64,000 nt of DNA from Alphaproteobacteria bacterium. Its GTDB lineage: Bacteria > Pseudomonadota > Alphaproteobacteria > RF32 > CAG-239. The notes under the pieces are model-generated. The model ran no database searches. It was given only the letters and a program-made list of their open reading frames with translations, and was not told where the DNA came from. A program made the translations under genes and the position numbers. Shown piece after piece: positions 6,459 to 53,219 of this stretch. The stretch lies in NCBI GenBank assembly GCA_015062585.1, contig SUUJ01000008.1:2837-66836 (forward strand). Reading direction: 5' to 3'. Position 1 is the first letter of the stretch. Every line of letters begins with the position of its first letter.

Positions 6459-8117
6459 CTAACCTTTATCATTTGTAGCTCCTTGTAAATATGGAAACGC
6501 ATTTAATAAATTTGTTTGAATTTGAGATAATTTTTTTTCATCCATGAAGTACTTATTTTTGACTTCTAACCATGATTTTTCATCAAATTCTTGGTTGTTA
6601 AGATCAATTTTGTTATGACTATTTATTCCAAATACTGAATAATAATCATTAAATTTATAATCCTTTCCGATAATTTTATCACTCAGTATCATTCTTACAT
6701 TTGGTATACATAGAGAATCTGCACAAATAAGCCCATGCATGGCACTTGATATTATGACTTCGCATTCTGCAACTTTTTGCACAAAATCAGAAGTACCGGA
6801 GCTTACATCTATTAGTATGGAATTTTTTACTTTTATTTTCTGTAAAAGAGGATTTTCTTTGTCAACATAATGAGGAATAATTCCCAGTTTGTATTTCTTT
6901 TTTATCCTTGAAGTATCAAATATTTTTGAAATCAACAAGGCCGGATCACCTATTGCAACAGTTGGTGAAATTGTCACATTTTTACATTTTTTCAATCGGT
7001 CTAAAGTTAAATATCCTCTGACTGCGCGAACATCTAACGGACGAATAAAAAAATCATCTTGCGTAGGGGCTTCTATGAAACCGCTTCCATAAACAATTAT
7101 AGGTTTTTTATTGATAATTTTGTTATTTTTAGAAAGTAAAATTTGCAAAATAGACCCTATGGCGGTGATTTTGCATTTTCTTTTATCAGATTCTTCAACT
7201 GAGGCATTAGCTAGTTTTCTGAATAAATCAATGTTTAATATATCACCGAAATTTACTTCGCCTGTATAAAACAATAACCTTATTGAATTATTCAAGTTTT
7301 TGTTAAACACAGGAATTTTACATATTTTTATAATCAGTTTATTAGATCTTGTTATTTTTTTCTGAAATATAAAACGATAAGCCCGACATAAAAAATTTAT
7401 TATTTTTACAATATGCAACACCGGATATTTTTTTGTCAGAGCTCTTGTTAAATCTTGGCTGTAATAGTTATCGGCTTGAGCATTTCTGGATTCCTCAATG
7501 TTTTTCACTCTGAAGAAAAACAAAAAATCATCAATGCGATAAATTTTTAAGTTAAGATGTAATAACATATTTAACCACAAATCATAGTCTTCCCAACCTT
7601 TATCAAAGGCTTTATCATATCCCCCGCATTTCTCAAAATCTGATTTTCTGAACAATGATGAATTAGTAATACAGCACCTCAAAATCATATTAAATTTAGA
7701 TGGGGTAAAAAATTTGTTGGTTAATTTTGGAAGGTTGATTTCATCAATTTTGTAAAATGATCTGTACTTACAACTTATAATATCACCTTTACCCGATTCG
7801 ATGGCTTCAAACGATCTTTTCAACGCATCAGGATGAACAATATCATCGGCGTCAAGCGGATAAATATATTTTCCTTTTGCGCGTTTTATGGCATTATTTC
7901 TGGCTGTAACTACACCTTGATTTATTTGCTTTATAAGGCGAATTTTATCAGATTTTTTTAAGTATTCTTCAATTATTTTTACTGAACCATCGGTTGAGCC
8001 GTCATCAATTACAATTGCCTCATAGTCATCAAAAGTTTGAGCCAAAACAGAATCAAGGCATTCGGCAATATATTTTTCTTGATTATAGCAGGGAATTATC
8101 ACTGAGATTTTAGTCAT
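6459..8117 (-). CDS. GT2 glycosyltransferase fused to a polysaccharide pyruvyl transferase domain
   Basis: N-terminal ISVIIPCYN, DDGSTD, LDADD and EDYDLW; C-terminal NFGD, IGSIL, VRGYLT, GDPALL, GIIPHY and SSAMHGLI. Likely start MTKISV at 8117. Confidence 0.88.
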   Translation of the reverse strand: MTKISVIIPCYNQEKYIAECLDSVLAQTFDDYEAIVIDDGSTDGSVKIIEEYLKKSDKIRLIKQINQGVVTARNNAIKRAKGKYIYPLDADDIVHPDALKRSFEAIESGKGDIISCKYRSFYKIDEINLPKLTNKFFTPSKFNMILRCCITNSSLFRKSDFEKCGGYDKAFDKGWEDYDLWLNMLLHLNLKIYRIDDFLFFFRVKNIEESRNAQADNYYSQDLTRALTKKYPVLHIVKIINFLCRAYRFIFQKKITRSNKLIIKICKIPVFNKNLNNSIRLLFYTGEVNFGDILNIDLFRKLANASVEESDKRKCKITAIGSILQILLSKNNKIINKKPIIVYGSGFIEAPTQDDFFIRPLDVRAVRGYLTLDRLKKCKNVTISPTVAIGDPALLISKIFDTSRIKKKYKLGIIPHYVDKENPLLQKIKVKNSILIDVSSGTSDFVQKVAECEVIISSAMHGLICADSLCIPNVRMILSDKIIGKDYKFNDYYSVFGINSHNKIDLNNQEFDEKSWLEVKNKYFMDEKKLSQIQTNLLNAFPYLQGATNDKG

Positions 8118-8295
8118 TTTGACAATCCTCCCAGTCAATCGATTTTTCGACCTCATATAAAGGAATAAAACCAAACAGATAAATCTTTTTTACAAACTCT
8201 GTTTTAACGATTTTTAAGATAGTAAGTTTATCAAACAAACAAAGCTTTTTTTCATTAGCTGTAAGAACAGTTTTTAGAATAGATATTTTAGTCAT
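8110..8295 (-). CDS. small hypothetical protein (61 aa) overlapping the GT start
   Basis: SD-like AAGGA upstream. Contains a K-x-x-L-F-G-F-I-P-L-Y type motif resembling the KIFKIPVF/KICKIPVF motifs of both GTs. Confidence 0.55.
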   Translation of the reverse strand: MTKISILKTVLTANEKKLCLFDKLTILKIVKTEFVKKIYLFGFIPLYEVEKSIDWEDCQND

Positions 8296-8321
8296 TTAAT
8301 TATCCTTATTTTCAAAAAAAA

Positions 8322-8646
8322 TAAAAAAAGACCACCATTGAAAACAAGGTGGTCGGAGAGTTCAACAATCATATCTCATTAAATGACTCTCTTAGCCTTT
8401 AGAACCATAAAAATGGCTCTTGGACATACGCTAAGAGCTCCCCGACCAAAAATTAAAAGACGGGGACATATTTAATTGCTCGTCCGATATTATTCAAAAA
8501 TAACAGACGAGAATTTTTACGACGTCATATCCTGAAACGCCGAATGAGATAAGAGCCGTTGAAAGCCCCGCACCTTTAATGTGCTAAATACAAACATTTG
8601 TTTGTATCTGTTTGGTATCCTAGAGCAATATGAGAAAAAAAGTCAA
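8322..8646 (-). promoter_or_regulatory. structured leader/attenuator resembling phage P1 c4 / P4 CI antisense-controlled leaders
   Basis: Promoter TTGACT-N18-TAGGAT. Upstream segment (8543-8570) is complementary to 8354-8380; antiterminator pair 8438-8448/8350-8360; terminator hairpin 8330-8354 followed by a T-run. Confidence 0.6.
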
Positions 8647-8697
8647 GATATAATCAAAAAATCAATATATAGTTTTTGAAAGGTTAGTTTTTATTTA

Positions 8698-9513
8698 TCA
8701 TAGCTTTTTATAAAACACCGGGATCTTAAATATTTTAACTATAAGTTTCCCGTTGCGAGTAATCTTTTTTTGAAAAATAAATCGGCAAAATGTGACGATT
8801 ATATCACTAATCAGTTTTTGCGGATATTTTTTATGAATCAACCGGTTTAGCTCTTTGCGGCGTTTGTTGGCATTAACATCTCTTGATTCGTTGGCATCTT
8901 TCAAACGATAATAAAATAAAAATTCTTCAACACGATAAATTTTTAAGTTGTGCTTTAATACCATATTAAGCCACAAATCATAATCTTCCCAACCTGTACT
9001 AAATGCCGGATCATACCCGCCACAGTTGATAAAATCAGACTTTCGACACAATGCCGAATTAGTGATACAATTGCGCAAAACCATATTTAGTTTGGTCGGT
9101 TTTCTGAAGCGGTTGGTCGGTTTGTCTTTACCTATTTCATCGGTATTGAAAAAGTTTTGATATTTACAACTGATAATATCGCCTTTACCCGATTCAATAG
9201 CTTGATACGATTTTTCTAAAACTTTTGGGTGAACTATGTCATCACCGTCAAGAAAATAAATATACTTACTTGTTGCTTGCTTTACCGCATTATTCCTTGT
9301 TGTGATAACTCCTTGATTAGTTTGTTTTATAAGGCGAATTTTATCAGATTTTTTTAAGTATTCTTCAATTATTTTTACCGAATTATCGGTTGAACCGTCA
9401 TCAACTACAATTGCCTCATAGTCATCAAAAGTTTGAGCCAAAACAGAATCAAGGCATTCGGCAATATATTTTTCTTGATTATAGCAAGGAATTATAATTG
9501 AAATTTTACTCAT
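8698..9513 (-). CDS. GT2 family glycosyltransferase
   Basis: ISIIIPCYN, DDGSTD, FLDGDD and WEDYDLW; start MSKIS at 9513. Confidence 0.9.
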   Translation of the reverse strand: MSKISIIIPCYNQEKYIAECLDSVLAQTFDDYEAIVVDDGSTDNSVKIIEEYLKKSDKIRLIKQTNQGVITTRNNAVKQATSKYIYFLDGDDIVHPKVLEKSYQAIESGKGDIISCKYQNFFNTDEIGKDKPTNRFRKPTKLNMVLRNCITNSALCRKSDFINCGGYDPAFSTGWEDYDLWLNMVLKHNLKIYRVEEFLFYYRLKDANESRDVNANKRRKELNRLIHKKYPQKLISDIIVTFCRFIFQKKITRNGKLIVKIFKIPVFYKKL

Positions 9514-9611
9514 CAAAAGTCCCAAGTGTCAAACAACAATACTCATTTTTTTTATGATAGTATAATTCTCGAAAAAATAAATCAAAAAATTTCAAGTTTT
9601 AAAAAAAATGA

Positions 9612-23243: not shown

Positions 23244-24401
23244 TTGCGCATCCAACAAACATTGGAAAAATATGTACCGCTGATTAGCAATATGCTGATA
23301 CCGGCGCTTATATATATTATTGCTTTGCTGTATTTTTTGGCCGCAAATGATTTTAACGCGTCATTAGGTATGTTTTTTCACAATGGCTTTTATGTCTTAA
23401 GTATATTAGGAATAATCATTCTCCTAAATTTTAATATAAACAGACATATGTTTTGTTTAATTGTCAATTTGATTGCCTATGTATTGATAAATCAGATAAA
23501 AAGAGAATATGGCGCGGAATTTGACCAAACAATATGCTTTGGTTATTTAATGATACTACTGCCGCTTAATTTGTTGATTTTTTACATTTTGGGACGATTT
23601 CGTTTTTTAAGTGTTCGTTCACTGCAGTTAGTTATGTTAATATTATTGGAATACGGTATTGCCGATGTTTTGAACAAACACAATATAAATCTAAATATTT
23701 CGTTTTTTGGTGTAAACATACTGTCATGCTTTTTTTATTTTTTGCTCATATTGATTGCATTTATAAAATCTGTAAATTCTAATCGAAATTATGATTATAC
23801 ATTTATGTATGTCGCAATATCTACCGCAACAGGGCTTTATTTTGCCGAAAATTCTACCGGCTTGAGTATGTTTTTCTTTATTGCTCAACTTATAATTTTT
23901 ATCGATTTGGTATATACCCTGACTTATAATCACTTTTATGACGAAACAACCGGTTTTTACAGTCGTAACTCGTATTTGCTTAAATCAAAACATTTTCCGT
24001 TCAAATATAATTTGGGAATTGTCAGTATTGATAATTATGACAAATTGCAAAAAACATTCGGTTACAAAAAACAAAAAATTCTTACAAATTTGATAGCCGA
24101 AGTTATCCAAGAACTAACCCCCGAAGAAGAAGTTTTTCGTTATGCCGCAGATCAATTCGTGGTGCTGTACAAGGATAAGGATAATAAAGAATCTTTTGCT
24201 CACTTGGATAACATCCGAAGGATTATTGCCGGTCTAAGCTTTAGTTGGTCAATAAAACAAAAGCCGATAAAATTGACCGTATCATGTAGCTTGGCCGAAA
24301 AAAAACGCAGTGACGCCAGTTCTATCGAAGTTTTGATGCGCGCGGACAAGGCTATGCAAAAAACCTTAAAATTCAGCCACAATGTAACCTCTCGCGGTTA
24401 G
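23244..24401 (+). CDS. membrane protein with a degenerate GGDEF domain
   Basis: About 8 TM segments, then D..TG..SR, IDNY.K...FG, RYAADQF (in place of GGDEF/GGEEF) and RADKAM. Confidence 0.8.
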   Translation: MRIQQTLEKYVPLISNMLIPALIYIIALLYFLAANDFNASLGMFFHNGFYVLSILGIIILLNFNINRHMFCLIVNLIAYVLINQIKREYGAEFDQTICFGYLMILLPLNLLIFYILGRFRFLSVRSLQLVMLILLEYGIADVLNKHNINLNISFFGVNILSCFFYFLLILIAFIKSVNSNRNYDYTFMYVAISTATGLYFAENSTGLSMFFFIAQLIIFIDLVYTLTYNHFYDETTGFYSRNSYLLKSKHFPFKYNLGIVSIDNYDKLQKTFGYKKQKILTNLIAEVIQELTPEEEVFRYAADQFVVLYKDKDNKESFAHLDNIRRIIAGLSFSWSIKQKPIKLTVSCSLAEKKRSDASSIEVLMRADKAMQKTLKFSHNVTSRG

Positions 24402-53144: not shown

Positions 53145-53219
53145 TGGTGCCGCTAGTAAGAATCGGACTTACGACCCCACCCTTACCAAGGGTGTGCTCT
53201 ACCACTGAGCTATAGCGGC
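53145..53219 (-). tRNA. tRNA-Thr(GGT)
   Basis: GCCGCTATAGCTCAGTGGTAGAGCACACCCTTGGTAAGGGTGGGGTCGTAAGTCCGATTCTTACTAGCGGCACCA; 75-nt cloverleaf with encoded CCA. Confidence 0.95.

Follow-up and report, generated by a model that had tools for sequence, protein, structure and literature searches.

We analyzed a 64,000-nt stretch of DNA from an alphaproteobacterial genome (GenBank assembly GCA_015062585.1, contig SUUJ01000008.1, positions 2,837 to 66,836), referred to below as the window and numbered from its first letter. On its minus strand, at 8646–8314, a promoter is followed by a ~290-nt leader that precedes a small open reading frame (ORF) and a gene in which a family 2 glycosyltransferase (GT2) is fused to a polysaccharide pyruvyl transferase. 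This leader comprises a pair of hairpins at its 5′ end, a domain of several helices that includes two pseudoknots (PKa and PKb), three short competing segments (seg1, seg2, and seg3), and an intrinsic terminator. It is a member of an extensive alphaproteobacterial family of on/off leaders that has not been described before, and it is probably the cis-acting two-state transcription attenuator, of the riboswitch type, of a self-contained unit. The parts of the leader are listed below, with the base pairs that show compensatory changes among homologues; the coordinates of P1 and of the 5′ strand of PKa were recounted by hand.

8617..8646 (−): sigma-70-type promoter from a promoter scan, with −35 TTGACT at 8646–8641, −10 TAGGAT at 8622–8617, and a spacer of 18
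8586..8609 (−): hp1, predicted 10-bp 5′ hairpin whose sequence differs among copies
8570..8584 (−): hp2, GCAC/GTGC hairpin; 88.1% of alignment cells paired, 3/4 pairs compensatory (40 homologues)
8553..8568 (−): P1, GGGC/GCTC hairpin of 4 bp, 8568–8565 with 8556–8553; 4/4 pairs compensatory
8563–8558 (−): PKa 5′ strand, inside the P1 loop, with its partner at 8366–8361
8361..8366 (−): PKa 3′ strand GTTGAA; 5/6 pairs compensatory
8543..8551 (−): P2 5′ strand, 9 bp with 8380–8372; 93.7% paired, 8/9 pairs compensatory
8520..8542 (−): P3 hairpin; 6/7 pairs compensatory
8532–8527 with 8469–8464 (−): PKb, formed by the P3 loop GGATAT; 88.6% paired, 2/6 pairs compensatory
8476..8513 (−): P3b, variable hairpin from fold prediction and alignments, short or missing in many homologues
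8461..8469 (−): PKb 3′ strand (8469–8464), overlapping seg1 TCCCCG (8466–8461), which is the P4 5′ strand
8438..8447 (−): seg2, GGTCGGGGAG, with seg1 (helix P4) or seg3 (antiterminator, AT) as its partner
8389..8437 (−): P5, 8437–8430 with 8396–8389; 7/8 pairs compensatory, 8/8 class-wide
8429–8421 and 8419–8402 (−): conserved GTATGTCCA and hairpin P5b, both enclosed by P5
8368..8387 (−): P6, alternative hairpin GTCAT/ATGAT, with the P2 3′ strand (8380–8372) in its loop
8351..8360 (−): seg3, CTCTCCGACC, which pairs with seg2 (AT) or gives its last 4 nt to the terminator stem
8314..8354 (−): intrinsic terminator GACCACCTT/ATGGTGGTC, stem 8354–8346 with 8338–8330 and U-tract 8329–8314; 5/9 pairs compensatory, 6/9 class-wide

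The leader folds far better than expected by chance. Its minimum free energy is −110.1 kcal/mol, compared with −70.5 ± 5.3 kcal/mol for 100 shuffled sequences (z = −7.51), and no shuffle was as good. A preliminary description of this DNA, made from its letters alone, had proposed a promoter, hairpins, complementary segments, and a terminator, all of which are present on the minus strand, and the GCAC..GTGC hairpin that it named is real (hp2, 8584–8570). Homologues were collected with nhmmer, which detected the element in 148 of 151 loci. From these, 146 copies were cut out whole, 133 of them unique, and 115 representatives remained after the removal of pairs at least 90% identical. A plain MAFFT alignment of 36 homologues picked for diversity from these representatives (A3) was not fitted to any structure, and in it 52 base pairs in eight helices are paired in 92.7% of 1844 cells, compared with 37–52% when the partners are slid. 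Compensatory changes are seen at 38 of these pairs, and on none of five measures does any of 500 shuffles equal the real alignment. The preliminary description had made its proposal depend on covariation among homologues, and this covariation is found.

The alignments also define how the parts are connected. P2 is a copy-specific 9-bp helix, PKa joins the P1 loop to the 6 nt directly 5′ of seg3, and PKb pairs the P3 loop with bases just 5′ of, and overlapping, seg1. The 5′ stretch 8563–8543 had been expected to pair with 8380–8361, and it does so as P2 and PKa; the outer CGGGG does not pair with CTCCG, the local hairpin P1 forming instead. Missing from that earlier account were seg1, which is the true competitor of seg3 for seg2, and PKb, P3, P5, and P6. 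Within a single conserved RNA fold, the complementary segments form intramolecular helices; they are not the loops of a processed antisense RNA.

Two of the possible folds exclude each other. As had been proposed, GGTCGGGGAG (8447–8438) can pair with CTCTCCGACC (8360–8351), which shares GACC with the terminator arm, and antiterminator and terminator are mutually exclusive ahead of the small ORF and the GT2/pyruvyl-transferase gene. AT is paired in 99.4% of 360 cells among the copies of the close gut lineage. A second alignment (A5), of 31 class-wide matches, was built on a model with P4, P5, and the terminator but with neither AT nor P6. On A5, AT is paired in 96.9% of cells (39–59% with slid partners) with compensatory changes in 4 of 10 pairs, and P6 is paired in 85.8% (31–44% slid) with compensatory changes in 3 of 5. 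For the helices that the model does contain, counts lean towards the fitted structure; with that bias, P4 is 96% paired with 4 of 6 pairs compensatory, and the terminator shows compensatory changes in 6 of 9 pairs. All four elements, P4, the terminator, AT, and P6, carry compensatory changes, and seg1, seg2, and seg3 change in step in several members. Selection acts on both exclusive folds, which is hard to explain without switching. We infer an OFF state made up of P1/PKa, P2, P3/PKb, P4, P5, and the terminator, and an ON state made up of AT, P5, and P6.

These two states suggest how the leader may control transcription. In the OFF state, likely the default, seg1 would pair with seg2 in P4 with PKb as a cap, and the 5′ domain would dock on the 3′ part through P2 and PKa. 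A free seg3 would then complete the terminator, and RNA polymerase would stop at the U-tract. In the ON state, seg2 would pair with seg3 over 10 bp and P6 would form; GACC would leave the terminator stem, reducing it from 9 to ~5 weak pairs, with read-through into the 61-aa ORF and the GT2/pyruvyl-transferase gene. The balance would be shifted by something that favors seg2:seg3 over seg1:seg2, whether a small-molecule ligand, a protein, temperature, or the RNA of another copy. Predicted energies fit a default-OFF switch: in a comparison of nested folds that ignores both pseudoknots, the fold with forced AT is a median of 4.7 kcal/mol less stable than the seg3-free fold (113/115 representatives, transcripts cut 3 nt after seg3), the two values for the window copy being −87.8 and −85.3 kcal/mol.

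The position of the element relative to genes points to action in cis on the gene behind it. A co-oriented ORF starts 8–119 nt after seg3 (median 42) in 111 of the 115 representatives, and the four representatives that lack one have less than 130 nt of locus sequence left. At least two hairpins are predicted in the 62 nt before P1 in 97 of the 115 representatives, and 56 of these 97 have a promoter of the form TTG-N3-N16-18-TAnnnT that ends 3–14 nt ahead of hp1; the count fell to 2 when the anchor was moved by 25 nt and to 1 in shuffled sequence. Simply scoring the best promoter within 85 nt did not tell real sequences from shuffled ones (mean 7.96 vs 7.79). By eye, three distant members of the family (L163, L166, and L167) have no U-tract terminator, and in them a seg2-like sequence overlaps or abuts the ribosome-binding site (RBS); seg3 could therefore sequester the RBS in these members.

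The first ORFs behind 111 representatives were scanned against Pfam and gave the following families.

Glycan and lipopolysaccharide: GT2 9; Acyl_transf_3 3; RgpF 2; GT99/Capsule_synth 1; Hexapep 1; epimerase/dehydratase 1; sulfatase 1
Envelope and surface: OMP beta-barrel 5; Chlam_PMP 1; Cthe_2159 2; Bor 1; PilS/Bundlin pilin 1; PEGA 2; BspA-type leucine-rich repeat 1; TM2 1; weak BamE match 1
Nucleases: SNase 6; PLDc_2 2; PDDEXK_4 2
Regulators: HTH_3 5, plus one weak HTH_25
DNA methylases: 2
No Pfam family: 60, many of them long signal-peptide proteins running off the locus

The 34 class-wide ORFs, scanned separately, are similar (OMP, PMP, pyruvyl transferase, FkbM, PAP2, a chemoreceptor, two HTH_3, a DNA methylase, TM2, and a phage tail protein). 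The preliminary description had associated the leader with phage antirepressor genes; this association is not supported, as no Ant, KilA, or Rha Pfam family is present among the 111 and 34 downstream ORFs. The ORF of one locus (L183), considered as an antirepressor, has no Pfam match at 1e-4.

Other copies and their downstream genes, a search for which had been suggested, proved numerous. A motif scan of contigs from one genome per species gave at least 120 loci, nearly all in records titled as metagenome-assembled genomes of uncultured gut or rumen Alphaproteobacteria. Among the motif matches listed, one lies on a 6-kb contig in a bin titled Bacteroidaceae (L066), which is probably mis-binned; the other titles are alphaproteobacterial or unspecific. 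In the same genus, the element is matched at E ≤ 1e-5 in 21 of 24 other species and at E ≤ 0.01 in 23 of 24, two of the latter being confined to 20 nt of the U-rich tail; in the remaining species nothing matched. A 139-position covariance model of the 3′ half of the leader (R1) was also run against 150 other groups of the class, each represented by a single genome. At E ≤ 0.01 it has matches in 21 of the 149 other families of Alphaproteobacteria sampled, and one genome holds as many as 9 copies; the listing at E ≤ 1e-5 counts 15 families. One unpublished genome (G065, locus L168) contributes one genome to the class-wide counts and one row to A5, and none of our claims hinges on this genome by itself. 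Three IMG/VR contigs (L195–L197) and two GenBank "Bacteriophage sp." records from human faeces also carry the element, either whole or as its 3′ half; a blastn search of plasmids with the element of locus L192 gave no match.

The genome from which the window derives (1.5 Mb) itself carries three clear copies and one divergent copy. BLAST recovers two further copies in it, at 69% and 72% identity, and one of the paralogues precedes an adhesin-like signal-peptide protein. Between paralogues, seg1, seg2, and seg3 are nearly invariant, and P2 differs from copy to copy. The fourth, divergent copy (contig C2, ~7350–7590; ~200–440 of locus L198) is matched only by the Rfam family sRNA-Xcc1 (RF02221), at 30.3 bits. 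Its features include hp1, a P1 hairpin with a loop matching the nucleotides ahead of seg3, a P2 of 10 unbroken base pairs, a seg2 of the GGACGGATG type, and a terminator, and it precedes a 64–79-aa membrane-like ORF. The other of the two paralogues recovered by BLAST, L003 (contig C16), precedes a secreted PLD-type nuclease and adjoins a serine recombinase gene, a setting that suggests a mobile island.

Comparison with Rfam connects the family to a small RNA (sRNA) already on record. When 19 distant loci were scanned at E ≤ 0.1, only RF02221 appeared, below threshold (36.5, 33.2, and 32.6 bits, against a gathering score of 53). The closing helix of the RF02221 consensus is GgCcGGggG/CccCCgGcC; the consensus further has one hairpin with AUACAAUA, another hairpin, and CaCC followed by U's. 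In our reading of the cmscan alignments, these parts map one-to-one on AT (seg2:seg3), P5 with GUAUGUCCA, P6, and the CACC + U tail of the leader. The window copy shows the features of the family, namely a GGYCGGGG/CCCCGRCC-type closing helix, two internal hairpins of which the first has a AUACAAUA-like bulge, and the CACC + U tail. RF02221 itself gave no match at the window copy, at E ≤ 10 in 8150–8800 or at the locus in the whole-genome search. Over the same class sample, RF02221 has matches at E ≤ 0.01 in 27 of 151 genomes, and five of these exceed the cut-off. R1 did not reach the RF02221 loci L183–L194 at E ≤ 0.01. The two models share seven places (in G039, G065 (two), G048, G161, G101, and G008), which form a chain of intermediates between the window copy and accepted RF02221 members.

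RF02221, an sRNA of Xanthomonas campestris borne on integrons, transposons, and plasmids, is modelled over 87 nt and filed as a trans-acting sRNA gene, whereas the leader has an extra ~150-nt 5′ domain (hp1, hp2, P1, P2, P3, two pseudoknots, and seg1) and a second, exclusive fold. Among 11 RF02221 loci with enough upstream sequence, seven have a P1-like hairpin 64–100 nt upstream whose loop is complementary, by at least 6 nt of Watson–Crick pairing, to the 9 nt before seg3 (0–39 of 500 shuffles per locus were as good). RF02221 therefore looks like a truncated description, and it appears to be the 3′ module of a longer leader. The leader in the window is a long-form divergent relative of sRNA-Xcc1 and, by the Rfam threshold, not a member of RF02221. 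sRNA-Xcc1 was detected as an 88-nt RNA (PMC2996969), precedes symE in the integron cassette most common in Xanthomonas (bioRxiv 10.1101/2025.06.18.660453), and is present in seven copies in Xylella, a second strain of which has some copies beside C4 and isrK (PMC12189769). Full-text searches on sRNA-Xcc1 and Brt1 listed no paper with an account of a long form or of a two-state fold. In G039 (contig C1, 749745–751817; L185), we also observed a tandem array of three RF02221 matches that exceed the gathering score, spaced 994 nt from one another and each followed by a ~100-aa ORF without a Pfam family; this genome also has a long-form copy at ~796.4 kb.

Brt1–9 of Bartonella henselae are multi-copy RNAs of 194–203 nt that stand before XRE (Trp) genes and are reported to be unique to Bartonella; their short RNAs are abundant, expression of the trp genes behind them is low, and a role as riboswitch and trans sRNA was proposed (Tu et al., PMC5387305). 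Deletion of the Brt1 3′ stem-loop de-represses trp1, giving high transcription, and a reporter rose as haem fell (reviewed in PMC8070961). If Brt RNAs are related to the leader, the effect of this deletion is an experimental counterpart to the attenuation proposed here. Like the leader, Brt RNAs are multi-copy, highly structured, and end in a stem-loop directly before a gene. Brt RNAs are reported to be followed always by Trp genes, whereas the window copy is ~290 nt long and precedes a glycosyltransferase; HTH_3 (XRE) genes stand behind 5 of 111 copies (plus the weak HTH_25) and 2 of 34 class-wide copies. Read as its reverse complement, the 24-nt pan-Brt primer BrtR aligns ungapped with the seg2-P5-AUGUCCA stretch of locus L169 (18 of 24 positions identical), and in our reading this single primer covers both invariant motifs at the right spacing. 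A BrtR-derived pattern had no match in five individual sequence entries, in the 130-genome family of G081, in the viral contigs, or in the one-species genus of G039. The primer resemblance hints at homology, and Brt RNAs may be relatives of the leader family.

The leader shows general features of riboswitches, namely a covarying structured domain with two pseudoknots and a platform with exclusive folds. It resembles classical riboswitches for signalling molecules, such as c-di-GMP-I (GEMM), in combining a conserved pseudoknotted, sensor-like domain with a terminator/antiterminator platform and in being repeated within a genome, ahead of a mixed set of surface, adhesin, pilus, and chemotaxis genes. 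Unlike in classical riboswitches, sensor and platform are interleaved in the leader and do not stand in series. No riboswitch model matched the window at the gathering score, 8150–8800 at E ≤ 10, or the 19 distant loci. The genome has a single GGDEF match (42.6 bits), located in the window at ~24003–24365 (+), and no DAC (c-di-AMP cyclase) domain was found in this genome. One GGDEF gene permits c-di-GMP as the signal and does not support it. The gene set, with its adhesins, exopolysaccharide enzymes, pilin, secreted nucleases, and chemoreceptor, resembles second-messenger regulons.

Several explanations compete with a cis-acting attenuator. The strongest of them, which we still regard as unlikely, is that the element is mainly a gene for a trans-acting ~290-nt sRNA whose seg1, seg2, and seg3 pair with other transcripts, including the nascent leaders of paralogues, its place before a gene being incidental or a second function. 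It does have its own promoter and terminator, occurs in multiple copies (three plus one in its own genome and up to nine in one genome of the class sample), and keeps seg2 and seg3 nearly invariant between paralogues while P2 is copy-specific; the abundance of Brt as short RNAs beside weakly expressed trp genes (PMC5387305) and the 88-nt sRNA-Xcc1 (PMC2996969) would also fit. Yet a co-oriented ORF follows at short distance in nearly all copies, relatives that exchange the terminator for RBS sequestration (judged by eye) make sense in cis only, the conserved complementarities are satisfied within the molecule and covary there, and the literature on sRNA-Xcc1 and Brt, as far as available, names no validated trans target. 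A constitutive structured 5′ untranslated region or insulator, with a terminator that leaks at a fixed rate, an alternative fold without regulatory use, and no signal, is somewhat less likely again. The lack of a known ligand, a heterogeneous regulon of accessory genes, and the greater predicted stability of the OFF fold in most members speak for it; the compensatory changes, however, maintain AT and P6 as well as the OFF pairings, two exclusive folds under selection are hard to explain without switching, and an insulator would need nothing nearly as elaborate as a 5′ domain with two pseudoknots.

The preliminary description had favored a phage immunity leader of the P1 c4/P4 CI type, co-opted or left behind; in such a leader, a processed antisense RNA would pair with two target sites. 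In P4 CI and P1 c4, one segment has two alternative partners (seqB with seqA and seqC of phage P4). The leader is like them in that short complementary segments would choose between premature termination and read-through, and in its similar logic, as seg2 is complementary to seg1 upstream and to seg3 downstream. Relatives occur in integron cassettes and, in a Xylella genome, beside C4 and isrK, and the element itself is present on the viral contigs and phage records named above. In contrast to c4/CI leaders, its pairings are intramolecular, no antirepressor gene stands downstream, and no covariance model of this type matches: Rfam C4, c4-a1b1, and c4-2 were unmatched in the window at the gathering score and in 8150–8800 even at E ≤ 10, where the five Rfam matches are at chance level and none is C4-type. 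The locus is a glycan gene cluster on the chromosome, with a LysM/M23 peptidase gene on one side and suf genes on the other. Co-option of a phage switch is a speculative idea, though not an absurd one, and we consider membership in the c4/CI type very improbable. Least probable of all, by a small step, is a selfish repeat of the miniature inverted-repeat transposable element type that merely folds well as RNA. The copies are multiple and partly an inverted repeat, but they keep a fixed orientation and distance to the downstream gene, have a promoter and a terminator, and keep their helices by compensatory change while sequence identity falls below 70%; by eye, no target-site duplications or terminal inverted repeats are present at the element ends of the paralogues.

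Several points weigh against the two-state attenuator that we prefer. In the close gut-lineage set, changes in AT are one-sided only, none of them compensatory; AT overlaps the terminator stem by 4 nt only; mutual exclusion of P2 and P6 is suggested by steric reasoning; and the energy comparison covers nested folds alone. The one RNA run (0.07 of sampled words shared) provided contigs only, none of which covers 8310–8630. We know of no ligand or factor for the leader. The authors of the sRNA-Xcc1 and Brt studies describe sRNAs that act in trans or also in trans. Finally, the downstream genes are very heterogeneous, with 60 of 111 lacking a Pfam family, which would be unusual for a metabolite riboswitch.

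The contrast between invariant seg1, seg2, and seg3 and a copy-specific P2 leaves room for cross-talk in trans. As the segments are invariant between paralogues, abundant terminated leaders could therefore also invade the nascent leaders of other loci. We tentatively raise, as a possibility that we consider less likely than not, an RNA-only network in which the 5′ domain is a built-in antisense that invades the sRNA-Xcc1-like module at the P1 loop, P2, and seg1. In it, leaders would invade one another, or all copies would read one global signal (c-di-GMP or haem), and surface-glycan, porin, adhesin, secreted-nuclease, and methylase genes would switch together; sRNA-Xcc1 and Brt would be truncated views of one Alphaproteobacteria-wide orphan riboswitch or immunity-like class.

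The window copy lies in a gap of ~400 nt, without an ORF of at least 40 aa, between two minus-strand GT2 genes in the chromosomal glycan gene cluster flanked by the LysM/M23 peptidase gene and the suf genes. The features around the leader are as follows.

8701–9525 (−): upstream GT2 gene
8306–8303 (−): RBS AGGA
8113–8295 (−): 61-aa ORF without a Pfam match, its stop overlapping the start of the next gene
6462..8174 (−): GT2 + polysaccharide pyruvyl transferase fusion gene, likely ATG near 8116; Glycos_transf_2 6.8e-41, PS_pyruv_trans 4e-12

The 61-aa ORF begins with MTKIS, as does the GT2 gene behind it (MTKISVIIP...), whose ATG its stop overlaps; it may be left over from duplication of a gene start, or it may be an upstream ORF with coupling to this gene. 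An 11-codon frame from the AUG inside GUAUGUCCA was considered as a leader peptide and dropped because several members (L003, L011, and L067 among them) lack that AUG. On the contig of a related strain, differences from the window cluster at 8477–8504, in P3b, and the conserved helices are unchanged. When the window was scanned with Rfam at the gathering score, the sole match was a tRNA gene at 53148–53219 (−).

If the leader acts as proposed, it would represent a large orphan riboswitch-like class of ~200–290 nt with two pseudoknots and two evolutionarily maintained folds. It would unite sRNA-Xcc1, filed as an 87-nt trans sRNA, and Brt, reported from Bartonella only, as parts of one cis-acting leader family. 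For the organisms, it suggests a means of surface control in uncultured gut and rumen Alphaproteobacteria (as their record titles give them) with ~1.5-Mb genomes. The genes that would be controlled encode glycan-modifying enzymes, outer-membrane and adhesin-like proteins, pilin, secreted nucleases, DNA methylases, and XRE regulators, and the same kinds of genes are phase-variable in other host-associated bacteria.

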